Source: Candidatus Aenigmatarchaeota archaeon
GTDB taxonomy: Archaea; Aenigmatarchaeota; Aenigmatarchaeia; GW2011-AR5
Length of the DNA: 64,000 nt
NCBI GenBank assembly: GCA_016184005.1
Contig: JACPDL010000003.1
Coordinates: 171,632 to 235,631, forward strand
Direction of reading: 5' to 3'
Of this stretch, positions 7,157 to 61,561 are shown piece by piece. The notes beneath the pieces were generated by a model. It did no database searches. It had not been told where the DNA came from and saw only the letters and a program-made list of their open reading frames with translations. The translations under genes and the position numbers were made by a program. Numbering within the stretch: the stretch's first letter is position 1; each line of letters starts with the position of its first letter.

Positions 7157-7558
7157 TCACACCTGTTTTTCTTCCTTCTTTGCAGATTCTGCAATCTTTT
7201 TCAATACATTCTCCCTTCTGAGCAGGCTTTTCACCCGCCTCATGTTCAGGACAGTAAAGCCCCTTTCACTGGCTGCTTTGTATATCTCAACGGCCTTCTT
7301 CGAGCCAACTGAGCCTGAAATAAATATGCCTGAATTCTCCGGAAGACTTCCCAGCTGCGAAGCGGTGCGAATGTTGAAAGCCCTGAAACCTCTGATCATG
7401 TGCATCTTTGTCTTTTCTGTTCCGTAACCGACTGAAGGCTTTTGACCGGAGCCGCCCTTGCCTAGGCGGAGTTTGCTCTGCCTGCCTCTAGGCTTTCGCC
7501 ATTTAATTCCAAGTTTTTTATAACGGAAATAATCCTGTTGCTTGAAATTCTTGCTCAT
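7157..7558 (-). CDS. rpl32e: 50S ribosomal protein L32e
   Basis: KKLGIKWRKPRGRQSKLR signature of eL32. Confidence 0.8.
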   Translation of the reverse strand: MSKNFKQQDYFRYKKLGIKWRKPRGRQSKLRLGKGGSGQKPSVGYGTEKTKMHMIRGFRAFNIRTASQLGSLPENSGIFISGSVGSKKAVEIYKAASERGFTVLNMRRVKSLLRRENVLKKIAESAKKEEKQV

Positions 7559-7938
7559 ACACCAGCACCCTCCAGCAACCTAATAAGTCTTTCTGATCGA
7601 CCTTCAAAATATATCTTATCAAAAAACGCATCAAATCCGGCTGGTTTCCATTTATCTTCTCGGACATAACTCTGACTCATCAGAACCATATAACGCCTTG
7701 GCAGCGATCCTTCTTTTTCAAGTCTTCTAATTTCTGAACCAATTTGCAATCCGGTTTCATCTTTGTGGTCAATGAACCGAAGGTCGCATAAGACTGCATC
7801 AGGATTATCTCTCAAATATGCTGCGATTGCTTGGTCTCTAGTGGTTGCTGTTGTTGTCTCATAGCCGGCCTTCTCCAATGGAACTGTACATCTAACTAAC
7901 CAATGGTCTTTGTCATCAGCTACTAAGACTTTTTTCAT
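7555..7938 (-). CDS. Stand-alone CheY-like response-regulator receiver domain, inserted between L6 and L32e
   Basis: MKKVLVADD start, conserved Asp (LCDLRF), 127 aa, single domain. Confidence 0.6.
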   Translation of the reverse strand: MKKVLVADDKDHWLVRCTVPLEKAGYETTTATTRDQAIAAYLRDNPDAVLCDLRFIDHKDETGLQIGSEIRRLEKEGSLPRRYMVLMSQSYVREDKWKPAGFDAFFDKIYFEGRSERLIRLLEGAGV

Positions 7939-14074: not shown

Positions 14075-14638
14075 TTAACTCCTCTGGAAGACTAATACAA
14101 ACTTCATTGCTTCAGGGTGATAGTAAGTTTTTAGTTCTGATGGAATATCCATATGAAATTCTTCTTTAAAATTTAAACCACAATTTCCTGCAAGCTCAAC
14201 AAATGTTTCTGTATCTTCTGGCAGAGAAGCCCAAGAAAATACATAGATGCCACTTGAATTCAGCATATGGGAAAAGCGTGAAAGTCTTCGTCTTACAATG
14301 TCTTTAGCAGGACCTAGCTGATCATGTGCTTCATAATATGGAATTTCACTTTCATCTACAAGGCTTCCAATAGTACAAACCATGTCCATCGCATATGGCG
14401 GCTGGAAATCATCATGTCCTGAAACTGAAAAACTTGCATTTCCAATTCCGTGCCCTTTCTTGTAGCCTTCTGCTTTCGCTATTTGATCTGGAGATATATC
14501 ATAACCATGCACTGTTGAATACGGATTTTGTTTTGCTAGATGTAAAGCTAAAACACCAGAACCGCATCCAGCATCGAGTATTAAATTTCTATTTTTTGCT
14601 AGGTCTCTTACCACTCTTGCTGATGATATTGTTGTCAT
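14075..14638 (-). CDS. Class I SAM-dependent methyltransferase (~188 aa), inserted between L2 and S19
   Basis: ILDAGCGSGVLALHLA glycine-rich motif I. The track ORF extends to 15007 in another frame over L2, so it was trimmed to Met MTTISSARV. Confidence 0.6.
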   Translation of the reverse strand: MTTISSARVVRDLAKNRNLILDAGCGSGVLALHLAKQNPYSTVHGYDISPDQIAKAEGYKKGHGIGNASFSVSGHDDFQPPYAMDMVCTIGSLVDESEIPYYEAHDQLGPAKDIVRRRLSRFSHMLNSSGIYVFSWASLPEDTETFVELAGNCGLNFKEEFHMDIPSELKTYYHPEAMKFVLVFQRS

Positions 14639-14643
14639 AACTA

Positions 14644-15357
14644 TCACTTCTTCCTCCTTCTCTTGCCGACGCGCTTGGGCGAGACAGATCCTACTTTCTT
14701 TCCCGGCGGCATGTCGCGCGAAACGGTCTTGTGCTTCCCCGGTTTTGTCTGGCCGCCGAACGGATGATCGACTGCGTTCTTTGCCACGCCTCTTGTCTTC
14801 GGCCAATACCTGTTGGACGCAGTCATTGCGTAGAACTTGGTTCCGGCTTTCATGAAAGGCTTCTCGATGCGCCCTGATGCCGCAACACTGCCCAAAGCCG
14901 CCTTGCAGCGCGATGAAAGCGTTTTCTTCTCGTTCGACGGTAAAAGCACGACACATCTCCCTGAGTCCTTCGAAAGCACCGTTCCAAACGTCCCGGAAGT
15001 CCTGCATAATTTCCCGCCGTCCCCCGGGTGGAGCTCAATATCATAGACCCTGCTTCCTTCCGGTATCCTGCCCAGTTCAACAATGCTTCCTTCTGTCGGT
15101 TCTTCCAGGCTGATCCGCTGGCCGACAAACATGCCGTCGCATGCCAAATGAAGGAACCTGCTGCCTGAAAATCCAACAACAGCAACGGGAGAAAATCTCC
15201 CCGGCGCATCGACTATGTCCACTACGGTTCCGGATTTTTCGCCGGCGGGAAGATAAGTATAACTAACCTTTCCAAGATACCTGTGGCCAGGTGCACGATA
15301 CCTCGGACTTCCTCTTCCTCTTCTCTGCTGCCTGAGATTTTTACCCATGATTATCAC
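14644..15357 (-). CDS. rpl2: 50S ribosomal protein L2 (uL2)
   Basis: uL2 motifs (GRNxxGRITxRHRGGGHK-like, GxxxAxxxxG) and expected position. Confidence 0.9.
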   Translation of the reverse strand: MIIMGKNLRQQRRGRGSPRYRAPGHRYLGKVSYTYLPAGEKSGTVVDIVDAPGRFSPVAVVGFSGSRFLHLACDGMFVGQRISLEEPTEGSIVELGRIPEGSRVYDIELHPGDGGKLCRTSGTFGTVLSKDSGRCVVLLPSNEKKTLSSRCKAALGSVAASGRIEKPFMKAGTKFYAMTASNRYWPKTRGVAKNAVDHPFGGQTKPGKHKTVSRDMPPGKKVGSVSPKRVGKRRRKK

Positions 15358-24144: not shown

Positions 24145-25848
24145 ATGGCTAAATGGCTGAATAGAAAACTACTATTTGCCCTAACTATTGTTGTTTTGCT
24201 TATTTCTGTAGTTCTTGTTATTTCTTCGCAAAATGAAACAGAACTTCCTGCAGAAAAAGCTTATGTGACCGTCAAAGCGGACAAAACAGTAAAGTCACTG
24301 AATAAACAAATTTTCGGAACTGCGATGCCTGGTGAAGGAAGAGGAAATCGCAGCGCATTCACGGACGCACCACTCAAAGAATACATGAATGAATTGCAGA
24401 ACGGGTTCATGACATTACAAGGCACATCAGCAGGCTTTCCTTTCTACCCGGAAATGACAGGTGAACATTCCAAACGCATGACAATAGCGCAGATACTTGA
24501 CAGAATGAAATTCAGGGATGATCCTGACGGGGCTGTGATTTATGAAACAGTCAAAGATGAACCGGCACTGAACAAACCAATGGACCATAACTATGATGAT
24601 ATTCTTCAGTATCTAGAGTCACTCAAAGCCAAACCAAAAATTGCTATCCGAGTTCCTACATACTTCACCGGCCTTGGAGATTCTATTGTAGCGAAGATGA
24701 AGCTCAAATTAGATCCCAAAACTGGCTCGGATCTTGTTCACTATCTCAACGATCCGCCTGTCACTGAGCTGGGAAGACTGCGAGCGCGAAATGGCCACCC
24801 AGAGCCTTACAACGTAAAGTATTTTGTGCTCGGCAACGAGATGTGGAACAACTATGTAATTTATGGCCTAAGTTTAGAAGACATGGCTGCACAACATATC
24901 GCTTTCGCAACCGCCATGAAAGCTGCAGACCCTACGGTTAAGATTGGATTCAGCTTTGCAGATGATGGATATCCCCATGAATTCTTCAAGCCTGAATTCC
25001 TGCAAAGGGTTGAAAAACAGCTTGATTTCAACGATCGCATGCTCTCACTGATAAACGGATATTTCGATTTCGGGACATATCATGTATATTCTGACGGCTG
25101 GATTGCTACAGAAGGTAAAGAAGTATTAGATTTGGGTCCTCAGGATTGGAAGTTCTTGATGGGCCAGGCATATATGAAGGAGAAATACGGGAGCTATCAA
25201 AGGCACAGAGAAATAGTTCAAAGGTATAATCCGAGTGCTGAGGTAATAAACGACGAATACAGCGGCCCGCTTGCCGATCTTGGTGGGGCATTATTTGCAG
25301 CTGATCATGTAATGTATCTGATCAGAACAAACTATGACAGCTATGCAGGCTATTGGGACAGCGGATTATTCGAGCCACTCTCATTTTTTGGCATGATCCA
25401 TATTCCGGACGAGAAGTCGCCTGATTACTTTAAGCGGCCTGCTTTTTACGCGCTTAAAATGTTCAATTATTATACTGGAGATTTTATAGTTGAATCTATT
25501 GTAAAATCTCCAACATACCATATTGATCAATTTGCATCCCAAAATCTTATTTGGCCTGCAGAAGATGTGCCAAGCGTTGCTGTAATGGCAACAAAGAAAG
25601 ACAACAAGCTTTACATAATGCTGCTCAACAGGGAGACGAATCGCGACATGGAAGTAGAAATCACGCTGGAAAGCTTTGTTCCTAAAGGAAGTGCAAAAAT
25701 CTATACACTAACTGGACAAAATATGAACTCAAACAATGAAAATAATCATAACAATGTTGTAATTCAAGAATCCTCAATTCAAACTTCCACTCTAGTCAAA
25801 ATACTCCTGAAAAAGCATTCGCTTGTCGCTATAGTGCTAGAGCAGTAA
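24145..25848 (+). CDS. Membrane-anchored putative glycoside hydrolase (TIM-barrel, clan GH-A-like)
   Basis: N-terminal TM anchor; VLGNEMWN (G-N-E acid/base-type motif). Family not resolved. Confidence 0.45.
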   Translation: MAKWLNRKLLFALTIVVLLISVVLVISSQNETELPAEKAYVTVKADKTVKSLNKQIFGTAMPGEGRGNRSAFTDAPLKEYMNELQNGFMTLQGTSAGFPFYPEMTGEHSKRMTIAQILDRMKFRDDPDGAVIYETVKDEPALNKPMDHNYDDILQYLESLKAKPKIAIRVPTYFTGLGDSIVAKMKLKLDPKTGSDLVHYLNDPPVTELGRLRARNGHPEPYNVKYFVLGNEMWNNYVIYGLSLEDMAAQHIAFATAMKAADPTVKIGFSFADDGYPHEFFKPEFLQRVEKQLDFNDRMLSLINGYFDFGTYHVYSDGWIATEGKEVLDLGPQDWKFLMGQAYMKEKYGSYQRHREIVQRYNPSAEVINDEYSGPLADLGGALFAADHVMYLIRTNYDSYAGYWDSGLFEPLSFFGMIHIPDEKSPDYFKRPAFYALKMFNYYTGDFIVESIVKSPTYHIDQFASQNLIWPAEDVPSVAVMATKKDNKLYIMLLNRETNRDMEVEITLESFVPKGSAKIYTLTGQNMNSNNENNHNNVVIQESSIQTSTLVKILLKKHSLVAIVLEQ

Positions 25849-25879
25849 TCATGGGCTGATCAGATTTGGACTTAATGCT

Positions 25880-25991
25880 TGCTCATTCGGGTGCTCCAAC
25901 CAGGCTAAGCTACCAGCCCGGGCAGACCGAAGTTTCGAAGAAACTTCAATCTCCTATGGGCTGGATCAGATTTGAACTGATGGCCTCCCGA
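25880..25991 (-). tRNA. Candidate circularly permuted tRNA gene: 3' half (25957-25991) encoded upstream of 5' half (25880-25919), separated by a 37-nt hairpin spacer
   Basis: Minus-strand 5' half GGGCTGG-TA-GCTTAGCCTGGTTGGAGC-A-CCCGA-ATGAGCA; 3' half TCGGG-AGGCC-ATCAGTTCAAATCTGAT-CCAGCCC-A. Perfect 7-bp acceptor and 5-bp anticodon stems, canonical D- and T-arms, 75 nt in total. Anticodon GAG or GAU depending on the junction. Confidence 0.45.
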
Positions 25992-26043
25992 TTATCAGTT
26001 TCACCAACAAGCAAGTATTTCTAATAATCATATGCGCAGAGCA

Positions 26044-26061: not shown

Positions 26062-26922
26062 TTATCGCAAGAATTCGTTCCTGTATTTTTCGTAAAAGTT
26101 CTTATGAACGAGATGCACGACCTTGAGCGGCGGGCCTTTCTCTATAATGAATTTTGTGTTCTCCCTGACATAATCGCCCCCGTGGCCGTCTATTATGAGG
26201 GCGCACTCGCCTTCACGAACAAGCACTTCTATCTTCTTGCTTGAAGGCACAACCTTCGGCTTGATTCTCGAGAAGAAAGGGTTCAGGGCCACTATGCTCA
26301 TGGCATCTATATCGGGATCAATTACAGGACCGCCTACCGACGCATTGTAAGCTGTGGAGCCTGTAGGCGTGGAAACCAGCAACCCGTCGCCTGAAAAGTC
26401 CATTATTGTGCCGTCTATATTAAATTCCATTTTCAGTATTTTTGACGGCCTCTTCCTCCCGAAAACTATCTCGTTAAAAGCAGGGGGATAAGGCTTGTGC
26501 AGTATTTTGTGGAAGATGCTTCTGGTTTCTTTGTAGCACTGCAGCCGCATCTTCTCGACTATCTGATAATCTCCCCTGAGCAGGCGCTGCAGGTTTTCTG
26601 TCAGTTCTTTGAAAGTGCAGGTGCAGAGGAACCCATGGCCTTCTATCTTGACCGGCAGAATAGGCAGGTGTGTCTGGTGCGCTGTCCAGAGCAATGTGCC
26701 GTCCCCGCCAACAGTTATTACAAGGTCACCGTCAAATCTTCTTACGGACAAGCCGCGCTGCCTCAAGCGAAGAGCAGTTGACCTGTCAAAATGTATTGAC
26801 TGCACGTGCGGCTTCAGCATTCTTTCCAGCTTTCTGGCCATGCGTATGCCGGCCTTGTTCTGCTTCGCAATTATCAGCACGTCATTCAATGCCGGCTTTG
26901 CCTTCCTCTTTTTTTTAGCCAT
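26062..26922 (-). CDS. nadK: NAD kinase
   Basis: GGDGT motif (VITVGGDGTLLWTA) and NAD-kinase C-terminal domain. Confidence 0.8.
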   Translation of the reverse strand: MAKKKRKAKPALNDVLIIAKQNKAGIRMARKLERMLKPHVQSIHFDRSTALRLRQRGLSVRRFDGDLVITVGGDGTLLWTAHQTHLPILPVKIEGHGFLCTCTFKELTENLQRLLRGDYQIVEKMRLQCYKETRSIFHKILHKPYPPAFNEIVFGRKRPSKILKMEFNIDGTIMDFSGDGLLVSTPTGSTAYNASVGGPVIDPDIDAMSIVALNPFFSRIKPKVVPSSKKIEVLVREGECALIIDGHGGDYVRENTKFIIEKGPPLKVVHLVHKNFYEKYRNEFLR

Positions 26923-26971: not shown

Positions 26972-28174
26972 TCAGGCGAGAGACCGGCACTTTCCAGGAC
27001 CTCGGTAAGGTATTTCATGGGCCGCATAAAATTCTTCTGATGTCTTGTAGCCAAGCGACTTGATTCTGGAATATATGCAAGGACGGGTTATACCGAGTTT
27101 TACTGCAGCGGCAGTCATATTTCCATCAGCCGCTTTAAGCGCCTCAGCCACTGCTTTCTCCGGTCGTTTGGTTCGGGATCTTTCTATCCCATAGGCTCTG
27201 CGAAAGTCTTCAGGAGACGGATAACCTAATTTCGTGATATTATATCTCAGTTGCCTGTCGCTTAACCGGAGGTCGCGTGCGGCGGCAGTCATGTTTCCTC
27301 TGCTTGCTCTAAGCGCCTCAGCTATAAGCTGTCCGCTGAATGCCCGCATCGCGGATGCGTAATCGCCGGGTTGCGCGTACACGGCTCCCGGCTGTTCTTC
27401 GCTTTTCTGTGATTTGCCCGTTTTTCCGCGCAGTATGCTGGGACAGATTTCATCGCCTTCGGACATCACGAAACCGTACAGCAGGATATTGCCGAGTTCC
27501 CTCACGTTTCCCGGAAAATCGTATTCCAGCAGCGCAGACACCGCTTCCGGCGTTAATGTTTTTCTGGCGCTGTTTTGCCTGCACAGCCGGTCCATATAAA
27601 ACCGCGCAATCGGTTCTATATCTTCCCTGCGCTCGCGGAGGGGCGGCATGCAGATCTCCAGGGCGCACAGCCTCTGGTAAAGTTCCTGCCTGAATCCGCC
27701 TTTGTCAGAAAGGTCCCTGCTGGTGGCGGATATTATCCTCACATCGGTATCAGACTGCTTGGTGCCGCCGACAGGTATGAATTCGCCGGTTTCGAGCGCC
27801 CTGAGAAATTTCGGCTGCACATCCATCGGAAGCTCGCCTATTTCATCAAGAAAGAGGGTGCCGCCGTCTGCGCTTTTTAGAACACCCGTGTTGCGGCGAT
27901 ACGCCCCCGTGAACGAGCCCTTTTCATGCCCGAAAAGAATTGACTCTGCAAGTTCGCGCGGTATGCTTGCGCAATCCAGCGGATAGAATAAGGCGGAACT
28001 GCGCCCTGAATTGCGGTGAAGCTGGCGTGCCACAAGCTCTTTTCCGGTCCCTGTTTCGCCTGTTATGAGGACAGGATAATCATAAGCCGCAAACTTCTTT
28101 ATTTTCTGCCGCACGCCTTCTATTTGTACGGACGTTCCTACTATTTCGCATTGTGGATTAAGGCCGCGCATCAT
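26972..28174 (-). CDS. Sigma-54-interaction-domain AAA+ transcriptional activator (bacterial enhancer-binding-protein type), no receiver domain, two tandem Fis-type HTH at the C-terminus
   Basis: Walker A GETGTGKE, ESILFGHEKGSFTGA (GAFTGA-type loop), Walker B GGTLFLDEIGEL, duplicated HTH (NMTAAARDLRLSDRQLRYNITKLGY / NMTAAAVKLGITRPCIYSRIKSLGY). Confidence 0.8.
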   Translation of the reverse strand: MMRGLNPQCEIVGTSVQIEGVRQKIKKFAAYDYPVLITGETGTGKELVARQLHRNSGRSSALFYPLDCASIPRELAESILFGHEKGSFTGAYRRNTGVLKSADGGTLFLDEIGELPMDVQPKFLRALETGEFIPVGGTKQSDTDVRIISATSRDLSDKGGFRQELYQRLCALEICMPPLRERREDIEPIARFYMDRLCRQNSARKTLTPEAVSALLEYDFPGNVRELGNILLYGFVMSEGDEICPSILRGKTGKSQKSEEQPGAVYAQPGDYASAMRAFSGQLIAEALRASRGNMTAAARDLRLSDRQLRYNITKLGYPSPEDFRRAYGIERSRTKRPEKAVAEALKAADGNMTAAAVKLGITRPCIYSRIKSLGYKTSEEFYAAHEIPYRGPGKCRSLA

Positions 28175-28244: not shown

Positions 28245-28928
28245 TTAAGAGGATGCAGATTGCAGCTGACGGTTCAGTTTCTTCAACAAGGAACCAAGTT
28301 TTGTAATGTCGGGAATTACATAGTCCGCTTTCATTTTTTCCGCCGTTTTCCTGTCCAGCACGCCCGTGAGGACCACAACAGCTTTTATCCCCGCCCTTTT
28401 TGCAGCAAGCACGTCGTTAGGCGCGTCGCAGACATAAACTGCTTCCCTTTTCTTCACTTTCAGTTTTTTCATCGCCTTCAGCAGTATTTCCGGATGCGGT
28501 TTCCCGTGCCTTACATCGTTGGCGCTCAGGGTTACAGGAAAGTATCTTTTCACGCCTGTGTGCTTCATCACCTTCAGCAACGATGGCTTTATTGCGCCAC
28601 TGGCCACAGAGACCTTGTACATTTTCTTGAGGTTTACAATGGCCTGTTTCGCGCCCTTTACAGGCTTCACCTTCTTGACGTAACTGTCGCTCGTCATTAT
28701 TCTTGTGTACTCTTTCATTATTCTTTCCACATGGCTGCGATGAAGCATTTCTTGGAGTATCTGCTTGGGCGGCTCGCCAAAATGAGGGAACAGGTCCTTC
28801 ACGGATTTCTTTATGCCGTTGTCAGCAAGCAGCTTCTCAAGCACGTAAGCCCCGGGAAAATTAGACTTGACAATAACACCGTCGAAATCAAATATTATGG
28901 CTTTGATCATTCTCAGCACCTGTATCAC
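28245..28928 (-). CDS. HAD-superfamily hydrolase (beta-phosphoglucomutase-like subfamily IA)
   Basis: IIFDFDGVIV motif I, plus K and DD motifs. Confidence 0.75.
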   Translation of the reverse strand: MIQVLRMIKAIIFDFDGVIVKSNFPGAYVLEKLLADNGIKKSVKDLFPHFGEPPKQILQEMLHRSHVERIMKEYTRIMTSDSYVKKVKPVKGAKQAIVNLKKMYKVSVASGAIKPSLLKVMKHTGVKRYFPVTLSANDVRHGKPHPEILLKAMKKLKVKKREAVYVCDAPNDVLAAKRAGIKAVVVLTGVLDRKTAEKMKADYVIPDITKLGSLLKKLNRQLQSASS

Positions 28929-29241: not shown

Positions 29242-29276
29242 CAAGAGGCTTCGGGTTCGAGTCCCGATCGGTCCAT

Positions 29277-29327
29277 CATCCAATCCCTTTCTTAAAAAGA
29301 AAGGTCTTGGAGAACCCCAAAGAATAA
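29277..29327. repeat. Family-C repeat atccaatccctttcttaaaaagaaaggtcttggagaaccccaaagaataa, copy 1
   Basis: Near-identical copy at 36851-36900. Confidence 0.7.
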
Positions 29328-29397: not shown

Positions 29398-29508
29398 GGG
29401 CTCGTGGTCTAGTGGAATGACGCGACGTTCGCAAAGAGGAGAAATATGTATCTCTCTCAAAAATATTGAAATACGTCGAGGCCGGGGGTTCGAATCCCCC
29501 CGAGTCCA
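29398..29508 (+). tRNA. tRNA-Ala (anticodon CGC) with a ~39-nt intron at/near position 37/38
   Basis: Acceptor GGGCTCG/CGAGTCC with G3:U70 Ala identity pair; anticodon stem CGACG/CGTCG; loop TTCGCAA; T-arm GGGGGTTCGAATCCCCC; discriminator A; CCA not encoded. Confidence 0.8.
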
Positions 29509-30011: not shown

Positions 30012-30596
30012 ATGTTCAATCTAACGCTAGATACATCTTGTTTTTCTCTAAGAAAAGAGGAAAATTCTTTGTTGAACGAGCTTTTAGAATTACAAGCAGA
30101 TTCAAAAATATTGTTGTACTACGCACCACGAACTTTACAAGAACTTATGATGTCCATTGCAAAGAAAAAAGAATTACCGAAAGTAATTGAAATGAAGATA
30201 AAATATAGGTTTCGAGATGTGTTCAGAGATTATTTAGAAAATATGGACGAGATTGACCCAGAACTCGAATGGGAAGACGAGTTCCACGAAATAGGACTAT
30301 TTGTTACAAGAGTATGTCTCGAAATTACTGACAAAAACGTAATAGAAAAGTTAGAAGTGTCAGAAGAAAACTTACGTAGATATTTGGATAGCCAGAAGAA
30401 CCATAACAGTCATACAGATATTGATATATTCACATTTCATGTTATGAACAAAGGTAATATATTCCTGACTAAAGATGTACCGTTGTTTGTAAGTAATCAA
30501 AAAACAAGAGAAACACTGGAAAATAAATATAACACAAAAATTAGACTCCTAAATAAAGATTTTATTGAAGAATTAAAAAATATGATAGAGGCTTGA
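30012..30596 (+). CDS. Hypothetical protein, possibly a PIN-like nuclease
   Basis: N-terminal LTLDTSCF (PIN motif-I-like Asp), downstream acidic residues, C-terminal IFLTKDVPLF (PIN motif-IV-like T-x-D). Weak assignment. Confidence 0.35.
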   Translation: MFNLTLDTSCFSLRKEENSLLNELLELQADSKILLYYAPRTLQELMMSIAKKKELPKVIEMKIKYRFRDVFRDYLENMDEIDPELEWEDEFHEIGLFVTRVCLEITDKNVIEKLEVSEENLRRYLDSQKNHNSHTDIDIFTFHVMNKGNIFLTKDVPLFVSNQKTRETLENKYNTKIRLLNKDFIEELKNMIEA

Positions 30597-31777
30597 TGCT
30601 TATGGAGTCTATGAATTATAAAAGTCCAATTAAGGTCAGAAATATAGAAATAGTAAATCAGTTAAAAGAGTTCTATTCTCTCTCTTCAAATATTGATTTA
30701 CCAAAAGACATAGAAACTCAAGTAATTGACATTGCCGTCAAGAAGATTGATCAAGATAAAAAAGTTGTAGAAAAAAGATTATTGGGATTAAATAAAGAAG
30801 ATGAATTTGTACTGACTTCTCTTCTGTTAGGAAATGCCCTTCAAGTTACAAGGCTTTCACAACAAAAGATTACACAAGATTTAGATTATCAAATACCAGA
30901 TTTTTTAGTATGCACTAGGGTTCCAAAAATTGTAGATAAAGATGGGGATAAAATAAACAGGTTTTTTGTAGAAGTCAAAAAATTATCAGAGAATGAAAGT
31001 GATTTTAAAATAACGCAGGATTATTTTAATAAACTTAAGAAATATTGCAAAACTTACTCTTTGCCACTTTACTTTGCAATTAAGTTAGAGCTTGGAGGTG
31101 TTGGTTTTTCTCAATGGGCTTTAATTTTCTCTGATACCGTAGAAAACTCTGGACAAATTAAAAAGCTAAAAATAAGAAAAGATAGCAAAGAAGAAGATTG
31201 TTATTTATTTACATTGAAAGACTTATTATCGAAAGACTTCTCAGGTTTATGGATGGACAATCATCTATTATTTTTGTCGGAGGGTTCGGTCTATAGAAAG
31301 GTTTATGATATTAATAAAGAATCCCCAATTCATATTACATCTGAAACAGGCGAAGATTTGGGAGGACTTGTAGAAGTAGAATTAAAAAACGGTAGTATTT
31401 CTGAAAAAGTAACGTTCGAAAAAGATAAACATGATGTCAGAGATATAATTTTCTATAATATTGCAATGAGAATAGCCAGAGGTAAAGAAACAATACAGAC
31501 TACAAATACGACAACTGAGAAAATTATAGAAGCTGATAAAAACTATTCAATCCCGCTTTATCATTTAGTTTTAGAAATTTACCTTCACTTACGTTCAAGA
31601 TTTGGAGAAAGCTGGAAGGAACCCAGATCAGATATAAGTTTTTACTTATCCCACTTAACAGACTTTGATTATAAAATATCTTATTTTATAAGAGATATAA
31701 TAATTAATTTACACAAGAATAATATAATTAAATTAATTAGAATGGTACCAGATTTTTTAATGGAAAATGATGACTAA
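30593..31777 (+). CDS. Hypothetical protein with a PD-(D/E)xK nuclease-like core
   Basis: IPDFLVCTRVPKIVDKDGDKINRFFVEVKK = PD ... E-V-K spacing typical of the restriction-endonuclease-like fold; start overlaps the upstream stop (ATGA). Confidence 0.45.
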   Translation: MMLMESMNYKSPIKVRNIEIVNQLKEFYSLSSNIDLPKDIETQVIDIAVKKIDQDKKVVEKRLLGLNKEDEFVLTSLLLGNALQVTRLSQQKITQDLDYQIPDFLVCTRVPKIVDKDGDKINRFFVEVKKLSENESDFKITQDYFNKLKKYCKTYSLPLYFAIKLELGGVGFSQWALIFSDTVENSGQIKKLKIRKDSKEEDCYLFTLKDLLSKDFSGLWMDNHLLFLSEGSVYRKVYDINKESPIHITSETGEDLGGLVEVELKNGSISEKVTFEKDKHDVRDIIFYNIAMRIARGKETIQTTNTTTEKIIEADKNYSIPLYHLVLEIYLHLRSRFGESWKEPRSDISFYLSHLTDFDYKISYFIRDIIINLHKNNIIKLIRMVPDFLMENDD

Positions 31778-42599: not shown

Positions 42600-45227
42600 A
42601 TGGAAACGGAAGAGAAGATAAAATCAAAATTCAGGCTGAAGAAGCTTGTGAACATGCTGCAGGCGATCAAAGGCAGGCATACAGAGCTTGTAACGGTCTA
42701 TGTGCCCGTGAACTACTTGCTCAGCGAGATTATCAGCCAGCTCCGGACAGAACAAAGCACCGCGGAGAACATAAAATCAAAACCAGTAAGGAAGAACGTG
42801 ACAACGGCACTGGAGAAGATAATCAGGCACCTGCAGCTCTACAAACACACGCCGCAGAACGGCATTGCGCTTTTCTGCGGCAACGTGAGCGATAAAGAAG
42901 GCGCGACGAATATAGAGATCTGGGCAGTAGAGCCGCCCGAAGAGATAAAGGTCAAGATGTACTGGTGCGACCAGAGGTTCGTAATGGATCCCCTGCTCGA
43001 CATGGTAGAAGAGAAAGAGATATACGGTGTCATCTGCCTTGACAAGAGCGAAGCAGACATCGCTTTGCTGAAAGGCAAGAAGCTTGAACTGCTTTACCGC
43101 AAGGAATCCATAGTCCCTGGTAAAACGCGCGCCGGGGGACAATGCCTGGCACCGGATACCCTCATACAGATGGGTGATGGAACTTTATTGGAAATATGTA
43201 AAGTCAGCAATCCCCATATAGTCAAATCTGTAAATTTCCCAGAAACAACCCTGAGCAACAGGCCGGTAATAAACAAATGGGAAACAAAAAAGAATACAAA
43301 ATACATAATAACAACCAAATGTCCTGCCACACAAATCGAATCTTCAAAAGATCACCTATTCTTCAGGTGGGGAAACAGTATAGAAGAGATTCCGGCAGAA
43401 AAGCTGAAGAATGGCGACTTTCTATTGCTGCCTGAAAAAATAGATGTAGAAGGCGAAATACAAAGTTTGAATAGCTCAGGCTTTTACAATTCATACAGGA
43501 TAAGTGAAAAAGGAAGAGAATATATTAAAAACAGAAGAATTTCATTAAAATTATTGCAGAAAGAATTGGCCAAAAAATCAGGTGTAACACAGACAGCAAT
43601 ATCAGTGATAGAGCTTGGAAAAAGGGATATAAAAATTGGATTTCTGAAAGTCTTGTGCAAACATCTTGGTACAGAAACAGGCTCTTTCATACGCCAGTTC
43701 TGCGTGCCAGTCAAAGATCTTAAACTGCCTGAAGTTCTGAACGAAAATCTGGCAAGTTTTCTAGGCTACTTTGCCGGAGACGGCTCTATAGAGAATGAAA
43801 GATTGTCGCTATTTGATGCTGACAAGCAGACGATTGAATATTACAACAACTTGGCAGAAATCACATTCAACTGCAACTCGAAAATCACGCATAGAGAAAA
43901 CAAGGGACATTATGTTGCCAGAATATATGGCAAACCTATTGTAAAACTGATAAAAAATGAATTTCCGGAACTAAAATACGCACTGGATACTGAAATGCCG
44001 GCTAAAATACTCAAATCACCTGATAGCGTACTTGCTGCATTCTTGAGGGGGTTTTTTGATGCCGAAGGCTACGTAAACAGGGAAAGGGGGATAGGTCTGG
44101 GGATAAATAACAAAAAAATGGCCAGGCAAACGCAGCTGGCTTTGCTCAGATTCGGGATATTAGCATCGCTTGCAGAATACGACAACAGGAGAAATCCTCA
44201 CAGCAAAAAACACAGGTTTACGGTAGGAATAACAGAAAGAACGTCACTAGAAATATTTCTGAACTCAATAGGATTTAATGCGGCTTATAAAAACAAAAAG
44301 CTGGCAGAAGTCATCCAAAATAAGTCAGTAACAAGCTATACAAGACAAATATTTCTGACGGGAGAAAATATAAGAAAAATACTTGAGTCAGAAGGCTACA
44401 AGGTGTCGGACTTTCCAAAAGTTACCAATTTCTTCAGAAATGAAAGGCTGATGAGTAAAGACGTATTCAGAAATTCCATAATAAATGAGGTTAGAAACAA
44501 CGAAAGCCTGAGGAAAAAACTCGAAATAGTATTAAATTATAACCTAGTACCTGCAAAAATAAGCTCCATAAAGAAAATAGAAGAGGAAAACAGGTTCGTT
44601 GATATAGAAGTTAAGAATTCCAATTTCATTGCAAACGGTATTGTAGTCCACAATAGTTCAGCACGTTTCTCACGCGTGCGCGAGGGCATGCTCAACGACT
44701 GGCTGAAAGAAGTGGGCGAAGCCGCGAACAAGATCTTTGAGGAGCACAAAGAGGTCAAGGGCATACTTCTGGGAGGGCCTGGACCAATAAAGGAATTCTT
44801 TCTGAAGGAAGAGTACGTTCATGCAGACGTGAGGAGCAAAATACTTGGAACTGTTGATACGGGCTATACAGGAGAACATGGACTTGAAGAAACACTGATA
44901 CGGGGGGAAGATTTGATAAAAGAACTGGCAGTCACGAAAGAAAAGAATCTTCTGCAGAAATTTCTCACAGAGCTTCAGAAACCGCATGGAATTGCAGTTT
45001 ACGGCGCCAAGGAAGTGATACGCGTGCTTGAGCTGGGCGCGGCAGAAACTATAATCATAAGCGAGAGCATCAGCGAAAAAATAGAAGGGGAAGACGCCAT
45101 AGAATATTTCGAGGAGAAAGCGCAAAACTACGGCACCGCGCTTATTGTTGTTTCATCAGACACGCGCGAAGGCCAGCAGTTTAAAGCCCTAGGCGGCATC
45201 GGGGCGCTGTTGAGGTATCATGTGTAG
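42600..45227 (+). CDS. prf1: Peptide chain release factor aRF1, interrupted by a 504-aa intein
   Basis: NIKS motif, GGQ motif, aRF1 domain 3 after the intein; exteins total 371 aa. Confidence 0.8.
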   Translation: METEEKIKSKFRLKKLVNMLQAIKGRHTELVTVYVPVNYLLSEIISQLRTEQSTAENIKSKPVRKNVTTALEKIIRHLQLYKHTPQNGIALFCGNVSDKEGATNIEIWAVEPPEEIKVKMYWCDQRFVMDPLLDMVEEKEIYGVICLDKSEADIALLKGKKLELLYRKESIVPGKTRAGGQCLAPDTLIQMGDGTLLEICKVSNPHIVKSVNFPETTLSNRPVINKWETKKNTKYIITTKCPATQIESSKDHLFFRWGNSIEEIPAEKLKNGDFLLLPEKIDVEGEIQSLNSSGFYNSYRISEKGREYIKNRRISLKLLQKELAKKSGVTQTAISVIELGKRDIKIGFLKVLCKHLGTETGSFIRQFCVPVKDLKLPEVLNENLASFLGYFAGDGSIENERLSLFDADKQTIEYYNNLAEITFNCNSKITHRENKGHYVARIYGKPIVKLIKNEFPELKYALDTEMPAKILKSPDSVLAAFLRGFFDAEGYVNRERGIGLGINNKKMARQTQLALLRFGILASLAEYDNRRNPHSKKHRFTVGITERTSLEIFLNSIGFNAAYKNKKLAEVIQNKSVTSYTRQIFLTGENIRKILESEGYKVSDFPKVTNFFRNERLMSKDVFRNSIINEVRNNESLRKKLEIVLNYNLVPAKISSIKKIEEENRFVDIEVKNSNFIANGIVVHNSSARFSRVREGMLNDWLKEVGEAANKIFEEHKEVKGILLGGPGPIKEFFLKEEYVHADVRSKILGTVDTGYTGEHGLEETLIRGEDLIKELAVTKEKNLLQKFLTELQKPHGIAVYGAKEVIRVLELGAAETIIISESISEKIEGEDAIEYFEEKAQNYGTALIVVSSDTREGQQFKALGGIGALLRYHV
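43143..44654 (+). mobile_element. Intein with LAGLIDADG homing-endonuclease domain inserted between Q and S of ...RAGGQ|SSARF...
   Basis: Begins with Cys (CLAPDT), ends with HN followed by Ser; LAGLIDADG blocks LGYFAGDGSI and LRGFFDAEGYV; embedded HTH. Confidence 0.75.
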
Positions 45228-61376: not shown

Positions 61377-61561
61377 GCCGAGGTAGTTCAGCGGTAGAAC
61401 GCCACGCTCATAAAGGCTTTTCTTTTAAAAAAGAAAACCCTGGAAAAGAAACAGAAATAAAAATTGGAAAGAAAACTTTCAAGAATTATGAGCTTTGAGA
61501 TGCTTTGCATCAGTGATAATGAGAAACGTGGAGGTCGTGAGTTCGAACCTCATCCTCGGCA
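61377..61561 (+). tRNA. tRNA-Met (anticodon CAT, elongator-type) with a ~113-nt intron (61414-61526)
   Basis: Acceptor GCCGAGG/CCTCGGC; D-arm GTTC-AGCGGTA-GAAC; anticodon stem CCACG/CGTGG; loop CTCATAA; T-arm GTGAG-TTCGAAC-CTCAT; discriminator A. Confidence 0.7.

Follow-up and report, generated by a model that had tools for sequence, protein, structure and literature searches.

Enhancer-binding proteins (EBPs) and sigma54 were found to co-occur in every case in a 2025 survey of 1,628 bacterial genomes, and no EBPs were detected in 380 archaeal proteomes; no sigma factors are known from archaea (PMC12316311). NtrC-type response regulators were reported from two crenarchaeal bins and one Thorarchaeota bin, without follow-up (Galperin et al., 2018; PMC5847659). 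Here we describe an EBP gene of a Candidatus Aenigmarchaeota archaeon, located at 26972-28174 on the reverse strand of a 64-kb stretch of DNA (the window, i.e. everything analyzed here) that belongs to a 548,858-bp contig (JACPDL010000003.1). The protein is deposited as MBI2232739.1, and its NCBI annotation already reads 'sigma 54-interacting transcriptional regulator'. In contrast to the archaeal NtrC-type proteins of Galperin et al., which consist of receiver (REC), AAA and helix-turn-helix (HTH) domains, the Aenigmarchaeota family is receiver-less, has tandem HTH modules and is syntenic across lineages. The literature searched contained no description of such a family and no work linking Aenigmarchaeota with sigma-54, and the top-ranked papers of a broader search on DPANN and EBPs made no mention of DPANN.

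The described proteins closest in architecture are PspF of E. coli and HrpR/HrpS, in which a sensor-less AAA+ core with catalytic motifs and a GAFTGA-type loop is likewise followed by a Fis-type HTH. Sensor-less EBPs of the PspF and HrpR/S type are constitutively active unless they are restrained in trans. The archaeal protein differs from them in its tandem HTH modules, each with an extra 'GY-x-S/T-x-x-x-F' tail helix, in its archaeal host, for which no sigma54 is expected, and in the absence of a PspA- or HrpV-like partner nearby. The closest solved proteins are NtrC1 and NtrC4 of Aquifex aeolicus (1NY5, 1NY6, 3M0E, 3DZD; E ~1e-62 to 3e-64), whose cores are 46-48% identical to that of the archaeal EBP and superpose with a TM score of 0.90-0.94 and an rmsd of 1.5-2.0 Å (Foldseek). 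Both differ from it in having an N-terminal receiver, a coiled-coil linker and a single HTH, and both act on sigma54. Over the AAA-HTH part, the best-scoring profile is the RtcR-like CARF-AAA-HTH model of PADLOC (PDLC01995; 315 bits, positions 168-479 of 481); unlike these proteins, the Aenigmarchaeota EBP has no CARF domain, and neither CRISPR nor RNA-repair genes are encoded nearby.

Regulation without sigma54 has precedents within the EBP family in TyrR, Rhodobacter capsulatus NtrC, VpsR and DhaR; VpsR is also among the PDB matches. These sigma54-independent relatives have typically lost or degraded the GAFTGA motif. VpsR is reported not to have the residues that activation of sigma54 requires (PMC6158489). 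The archaeal family differs from the TyrR/VpsR-type relatives in keeping both the GAFTGA-type loop and the ATPase motifs.

Domains and motifs of the archaeal EBP

The following features were located in the gene and its product:

26972..28174 (-), EBP gene; 400 aa, ATG start; AAA+ core, lid and two Fis-type HTH modules (open reading frame (ORF), Pfam, NCBIfam, PDB, AlphaFold2 (AF2) model, Foldseek)
27653..28144 (-), sigma-54 interaction (AAA+) domain, residues 11-174; PF00158 Sigma54_activat, E=1.4e-58
28037..28060 (-), Walker A GETGTGKE, residues 39-46; motif scan; invariant in the clade
27902..27919 (-), L1 loop GSFTGA (GAFTGA-type), residues 86-91; codons ggc tcg ttc acg ggg gcg
27839..27856 (-), Walker B LFLDEI, residues 107-112; sequence and motif scan
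residues 161-169, Arg finger FRQELYQRL; sequence and motif scan
27392..27637 (-), AAA+ lid (AAA_lid_14), residues 180-261; PF25601, E=9e-19
residues 220-227, sensor II FPGNVREL, inside the lid; motif scan
27194..27361 (-), HTH module 1 '...KLGYPSPEDFRRAYGI', residues 272-327; HTH_8 at 277-315 plus the extra tail helix
27020..27160 (-), HTH module 2 '...SLGYKTSEEFYAAHEIPY', residues 339-385; second HTH_8 stretch; duplicate of module 1

By sequence and fold the protein belongs to the EBP family, and all structural hallmarks of membership are present. Pfam and Foldseek place the core in the sigma54-interaction type of AAA+ domain, with the L1 and L2 insertions specific to EBPs. The PF00158 alignment spans 167/168 profile positions, and Sigma54_activat scores 198 bits on the protein versus 34 bits for AAA_5 and 17 bits for Mg_chelatase. 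NCBIfam aligns it solely with the central and C-terminal parts of NtrC, NorR, RtcR, NifA and PspF, and the cores of NtrC1, FleQ and ZraR superpose on the AF2 model with TM scores of 0.90-0.94. Placement in a non-EBP AAA+ clade (McrB, MoxR, Lon, Mg-chelatase) was considered and is rejected by the Pfam, PDB and Foldseek matches. A first-pass annotation made from the letters of the window had read the ORF as a full sigma54-interaction domain with a GSFTGA loop, no N-terminal sensor or receiver, and two tandem Fis-like HTH domains, and had named McrB/MoxR as the clade to which closer inspection might move it; each of these readings of the architecture was confirmed, and the protein stays with the sigma54 activators in Pfam, NCBIfam, PDB and Foldseek alike.

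No N-terminal regulatory domain (REC, GAF, PAS, V4R) was found with Pfam, NCBIfam or in the ORF itself, in which the AAA+ domain begins at residue 11; such a domain is typical of EBPs without being obligatory, as PspF and HrpR/S show. A hidden N-terminal extension is impossible because the ORF starts at the first ATG after an in-frame stop, and the short N-terminus is kept throughout the family. With Walker A and B, Arg finger, sensor II and L1 loop in place, the protein is predicted to retain everything needed for an ATP-hydrolysing ring. The GSFTGA variant is common in bacteria, accounting for 71 of the ~260 L1 motifs in the bacterial homologues compared; G-x-F-T-G-A is retained in all clade members, one of which (P0006) carries GAFTGA.

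The AF2 model (pLDDT 89) resolves the C-terminal end into two separate four-helix modules, with helices at residues 272-290, 295-301, 306-315 and 321-327 in the first and at 339-348, 353-360, 364-373 and 379-385 in the second. Pfam likewise matches HTH_8 (E=2.5e-14) to two stretches. At the DNA level the modules contain direct repeats (27104-27148 and 27278-27322) that are 90-94% identical at a spacing of 174 nt, showing that module 2 arose by an internal duplication of 58 codons (174 nt).

Residence in the archaeal chromosome and bacterial origin

The EBP gene lies between two housekeeping genes on the same strand:

28245..28928 (-), HAD-family hydrolase (HAD), upstream neighbour; Pfam; same order in L001-L009 and L011
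28208..28213 (-), TATA-like box, TTATAA in ATTCTTATAAGGG, ~36 nt upstream of the EBP ATG
26062..26922 (-), NAD kinase (NADK), downstream neighbour; Pfam; own conserved TATA-like box TTCTATTAAAAGC

The order HAD-EBP-NADK was found again in at least nine independently assembled contigs from at least eight samples, built with different pipelines; in the Logan, ENA and NCBI contigs with this order the EBPs are 100, 90, 81, 75 and 54% identical to that of the window. This recurrence excludes a chimeric assembly. The window itself encodes the archaeal markers L32e, S4e, L18/L5e, SecY, an intein-bearing aRF1 and RFC, and FtsZ too, its two intron-bearing tRNAs likewise point to an archaeon, and its proteins are deposited under Candidatus Aenigmarchaeota. 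Caution has been voiced about NtrC-type proteins found in unfinished archaeal genomes (PMC5847659), and a chimeric or bacterial contig carrying contaminating EBP DNA would be the artefact to consider here. We regard its probability as negligible, since different pipelines assembled the three-gene arrangement independently from those samples, archaeal genes flank both sides of the gene on the 549-kb contig, and the GC content at third codon positions (GC3) of the gene co-varies with that of its neighbours. The EBP gene is a resident accessory chromosomal gene of the archaeon, and the contig is neither chimeric nor bacterial, so that the archaeal context assumed in the first-pass annotation stands.

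The overall GC content of the EBP gene is 0.53 and is raised through the first and second codon positions. Comparison with its neighbours, which had been proposed as a check, gave GC3 values of 0.54 versus 0.58-0.60, 0.63 versus 0.74-0.80 and 0.30 versus 0.45-0.50 in three lineages, so that the gene tracks its surroundings, and its codon usage falls inside the range of native genes. The TATA-like box (ATTCTTATAA) is conserved in the window, in L004, in L007 and in the most divergent allele, L009, and the HAD and NADK genes carry similar boxes of their own; the EBP gene is probably transcribed from its own predicted archaeal TATA-type promoter. No conserved partner gene and no operator-like motif was found around the locus, where the repeat and motif search returned TATA-like boxes, the HTH duplication and tRNA-related repeats only.

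Nearly all of the 8000 scored homologues are bacterial-type NtrC-family proteins, and only six or seven group closely with the window EBP. The best bacterial homologues are ~44% identical and spread over many phyla, with no specific donor. A neighbour-joining (NJ) tree of the AAA+ domain, which carries no support values, gives a monophyletic archaeal group; its nearest branch is P0011, a protein 44% identical and encoded in a bacterial context (MlaA, ResB, Tat). Judged from these comparisons, a horizontal origin from Bacteria is the only sensible reading, in agreement with the proposal that a bacterial gene had been acquired. The transfer would be old, because bacterial homologues are only that similar, GC3 tracks the neighbours and codon usage is native-like, and the data fit an early acquisition in a lineage ancestral to part of Candidatus Aenigmarchaeota (DPANN). 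For this phylum, the literature describes ancient bacterial imports at ~42% identity (PMC8407114). A recent transfer with a recognisable donor is rejected on the same grounds: the best bacterial matches come from many phyla and the NJ sister is no closer.

Several further searches bear on the distribution of the gene. Searching the genome contig collection with the EBP gave no match, and the NAD kinase gave one useful locus there (L011). A scan of metagenome contigs with the clade motifs TGETGTGK and LFLDE[IV]GE was uninformative, returning ordinary bacterial REC-AAA-HTH proteins only; five metagenome matches with a long C-terminal alignment were inspected and are standard NtrC types. A word-indexed search with the C-terminal 137 aa gave no match, viral contigs contained no EBP relatives, and plasmids contained no close ones (all <60% identity).

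An exhaustive HMMER search with a clade profile against 1.84 billion representatives yielded at least seven sensor-less relatives among the best 150 matches listed. Seven share the short N-terminus and an HTH module ending in 'GY-x-S/T-x-x-x-F-x-x-H-G-I', which is present in tandem in P0236, P0240 and P0243 and singly in P0227, P0241, P0242 and P0247. The duplication is older than the divergence of the tandem members, since their second modules share an '...IPY' ending. P0240 (L018, 137-1549) adjoins a SUF (Fe-S) operon, and the SufB of this operon matches named Candidatus Aenigmarchaeota proteins at 84-88% identity. This defines a second EBP locus, seen in two contigs, at which the gene lies beside glutamate dehydrogenase (GDH) and runs convergently towards the end of the SUF operon (PadR-SufC-SufB-SufD-SufS-NifU); the contig of P0236 shows the same SUF-GDH synteny as that of P0240. 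The syntenic SUF-GDH region of L019, from an Aenigmarchaeota metagenome-assembled genome (GCA_018304605.1, 14500-16300), contains no EBP. From the HAD-NADK locus, the SUF-GDH contigs and the gap in L019, the family occupies at least two Aenigmarchaeota loci in a patchy manner. On this evidence the window EBP is a member of a small, fast-evolving, patchily distributed Aenigmarchaeota family and not a singleton.

Further observations concern two groups of proteins. A small Acetyltransf_CG gene (66-88 aa) invariably follows the genes for the single-HTH relatives P0241 and P0242 (L014, L016, L017). L014 stems from a 0.1-µm filter fraction of Hainich groundwater. Neighbouring genes in these three contigs have A/T-rich boxes ~30 nt upstream of their starts and GGTGAT-type ribosome-binding sites, the position of the boxes and the GGTGAT sites suggesting, without proving, an archaeal origin; NCBIfam matches of the neighbours are not diagnostic. 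The second group consists of many proteins of 560-1030 aa with two or three tandem EBP-type AAA+ modules (P0007, encoded at L010 434-2401, and P0213-P0235); these obtain the top scores with the clade profile. The 'GY-x-S/T' tailed HTH of the archaeal family is also found at the end of P0007 and P0216. The contig L010 has a GC content of 0.34 and holds a beta-CASP nuclease gene and an inositol-phosphatase-family gene; here, too, NCBIfam matches of the neighbouring genes are not diagnostic.

Selection, allele exchange and possible function

Pairwise Nei-Gojobori estimates of dN/dS between alleles are 0.05-0.27 for the AAA+ core, 0.12-0.52 for the lid and 0.3-0.86 for the HTH modules, and exceed 1 for the linker in close pairs; the neighbouring NAD kinase and HAD genes have values of about 0.09 and about 0.14. 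Apart from a remnant in L011, the ORFs are intact across dS >1.5. The values for the core show that the ATPase is maintained by purifying selection, and the DNA-binding end is, by the same estimates, relaxed or diversifying.

In L011, a GTDB representative (uncultured archaeon, CAYJVV010000007.1, 5312-5968), the EBP site holds a remnant only. A deletion with a frameshift has removed residues ~30-196 and with them the entire ATPase core, leaving a 34-aa peptide and an open frame of 191 codons for the lid and the two HTH modules. The N-terminal 30 codons show 4 differences in 87 nt to L009, while the flanking genes have diverged to dS ~1.5, and the lid-plus-HTH frame has a dN/dS of ~0.29 relative to P0006. 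The L011 copy may have become a pseudogene recently, or else it is a truncated derivative with HTH modules only.

One alternative reading takes the gene for a decaying passenger, a functionless bacterial EBP that is still present only because it decays slowly and hitch-hikes with the housekeeping genes on either side. Patchy presence with an EBP-free SUF locus in L019, the core-deleted and frameshifted copy in L011, the relaxed linker (dN/dS >1 in close pairs) and HTH modules (up to 0.86) and an archaeal host in which the cognate sigma54 is not expected would all suit such a passenger. We nevertheless consider it rather unlikely, because neutral sequence would not outlast divergence of this extent: the ORFs are intact across dS of at least 1.5, the core is constrained at 0.05-0.27 with catalytic motifs and L1 loop invariant, the promoter box is conserved, and the family, found at two or more loci in the phylum, has diversified.

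Comparison of the EBP gene with its flanks shows a mosaic locus. Between the window and L009, DNA identity is 79-90% for HAD and 86-95% for NADK, versus 47-71% for the EBP gene. The opposite holds for L008, with 59-76% for HAD and 70-76% for NADK versus 83-90% for the AAA+ core of the EBP, and with a dS of 0.66 for the EBP gene versus 1.7 for NADK. These discordant values indicate that lineages have exchanged EBP alleles while the site stayed fixed.

A second alternative is a self-contained cassette that moves among Aenigmarchaeota while diversifying, with a role in the control of viruses or mobile elements or in the relationship of symbiont and host, and not in core metabolism. The mosaic locus, the patchy insertion between unrelated housekeeping genes at different loci, the fast evolution of the DNA-recognition modules and a probable integration hot spot just beyond HAD (a tRNA and a low-GC island, with an integrase in L007) speak for a conflict or mobile-element regulator of this kind, as does the best PADLOC match, to the CRISPR-ancillary CARF-AAA-HTH (RtcR_PspF2) models with 315 bits. 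That match is, however, limited to the shared AAA-HTH part, and the CARF domain is absent. Moreover, no effector, integrase or terminal repeats flank the EBP gene itself, and the viral and plasmid searches described above gave no relatives and no close relatives (all <60% identity), respectively. We give this explanation only a modest chance, similar to that of the passenger; it overlaps with the reading preferred below and differs from it mainly in biological role.

No sigma54 domain was found among the ~50 ORFs scanned in the window. The promoter consensus TGGCAC-N5-TTGCW, searched in the window with up to two mismatches, is not enriched (37 matches versus 39.5 ± 6.4 expected, none of them with zero mismatches), and the sole match near the EBP locus, at 28017-28032, lies inside the EBP coding sequence and not in an intergenic region. 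The suggestion that the gene might reflect unusual transcription machinery thus found no support in the window. Presumably rpoN is absent from the genome, of which the domain scan covered the 64-kb window. To our knowledge, archaea have no sigma factors, and sigma54 requires the bacterial core polymerase. Since archaea have neither sigma54 nor this polymerase, the EBP is most likely sigma54-independent.

A classical sigma54-dependent activator, with sigma54 supplied by the archaeon or by a bacterial partner with whose cytoplasm it is in contact, is a reading that we consider very unlikely. It would explain why the GAFTGA-type loop is retained and would agree with the invariable co-occurrence of EBPs and sigma54 in the 1,628 bacterial genomes (PMC12316311). 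Against it stand the established absence of sigma factors from archaea and the dependence of sigma54 on the bacterial enzyme, the window scans for the domain and the promoter consensus, and the lack of a secretion signal in the EBP. Known DPANN hosts are archaea, which also counts against this reading. Bacterial hosts for Aenigmarchaeota in particular have been argued against (PMC8407114).

We favour, with moderate confidence, a domesticated accessory regulator that works without sigma54: a sensor-less AAA+ ring that would assemble constitutively, its tandem HTH modules holding it at specific DNA sites. Transcription would then be regulated by simple occupancy or by looping, or alternatively the L1 pore loops might act on a second protein bound to DNA and remodel it. 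In place of a built-in sensor, the amount of protein expressed or a trans-acting partner would control activity, comparable to the PspF/PspA pair. Bacterial EBP relatives that act independently of sigma54 usually lose the GAFTGA-type loop, and its conservation here suggests that the loop still engages some partner in the archaeon.

Several observations weigh against this domesticated regulator. The absence of rpoN on which it depends is judged from the 64-kb window. The GAFTGA motif is kept here, though sigma54-independent EBP relatives have typically lost it, so that plain occupancy fails to explain the conserved GSFTGA loop. The HTH modules are the least constrained part (0.3-0.86), contrary to what one would expect if the regulator had fixed targets, and the gene is dispensable in some lineages, as seen from the core-less remnant in L011 and the EBP-free SUF-GDH locus in L019. 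In addition, neither an operator candidate nor a partner gene with conserved presence emerged, and no regulon was detected.

A further reading makes the protein an archaeal enhancer-type activator, in which a tethered ring uses its GAFTGA-type loops and ATP to remodel TFB, TFE, TBP or RNA polymerase, or to strip a repressor or chromatin protein from DNA. We regard this as a tentative idea of low probability. If true, no earlier case would exist of a GAFTGA-bearing EBP with a sigma54-independent task, or of promoter activation driven by ATP in Archaea.

Other features of the window and significance of the family

A CheY-like receiver is encoded at 7555-7938 between L32e and L6, with a Response_reg score of 30.5 bits (cut-off 30.2) and a GC3 of 0.31. 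The orphan receiver pointed out in the first-pass annotation is real though marginal; no link to the EBP is supported, the gene being 19 kb away and compositionally foreign. A SAM-methyltransferase gene at 14075-15007 also lies inside the archaeal ribosomal-protein operon (GC3 0.35 versus ~0.5-0.6 for ribosomal genes). Both are probably later insertions, since they are compositionally foreign in this operon. Stand-alone receivers are the commonest archaeal response regulators (PMC5847659).

Between NAD kinase and a glycoside-hydrolase gene lies an apparent circularly permuted tRNA-Ile(GAU) (25887-25998, reverse strand), found likewise in L004 and L009. Its 3' part, from the anticodon loop to the acceptor end (25998-25957), is located upstream of its 5' part (25919-25887). 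Joined in silico, the halves form a perfect 75-nt cloverleaf (ARAGORN), and leader and trailer can pair (-16.7 kcal/mol). In the window this copy is called neither by Rfam at the gathering threshold nor by ARAGORN; in L007 the corresponding tRNA gene is not permuted and contains a long intron in the D-loop (Rfam, 60 bits). A degenerate second copy of the T-arm and 3' end (25858-25887 versus 25964-25993, 73%) adjoins a gene for a 567-aa arabinofuranosidase-like protein (24145-25848) that is absent there in L004; this copy resembles the att-type duplications that insertions leave behind.

Two more tRNAs, at 29398-29508 (111 nt) and 61377-61561 (185 nt), are taken to be intron-bearing because Rfam calls both and ARAGORN misses both. 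A third tRNA-like 3' end (GGGTTCGAGTCCCGATCGGTCCATCA) at 29245-29278 is called by neither program. The tRNA at 29398-29508 adjoins a low-GC island (30012-31777; GC 0.29-0.31, GC3 0.23-0.29), whose ORFs of 194 and 394 aa have no Pfam or PADLOC match, and in L007 a tyrosine integrase is encoded upstream of HAD, on the same side as this island. The region beyond HAD, with its tRNA and low-GC island, is probably an integration hot spot. Finally, the aRF1 gene (42600-45227; eRF1 domains 1-3) is split by an intein with LAGLIDADG homing-endonuclease and HTH_3 domains; its NCBI label is 'helix-turn-helix domain-containing protein' only.

Given the strict co-occurrence of GAFTGA-bearing EBPs and sigma54 in bacteria (PMC12316311), the EBP ATPase and sigma54, its sole known substrate, have been thought to be inseparable. 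Here, a complete EBP core is kept under purifying selection, diversified and exchanged within an archaeal phylum that is expected to lack sigma54. Should rpoN be present after all, or the protein be inert, the gene would be an ordinary curiosity of horizontal transfer. If the absence of rpoN is confirmed, the family would be a natural experiment on what else an EBP ring and its L1 loops can act on. The tandem HTH is a new architecture for the EBP family, and the locus, with synteny in its support, is a clean example of the apparent domestication of a bacterial regulator in DPANN archaea, whose genomes are reduced.

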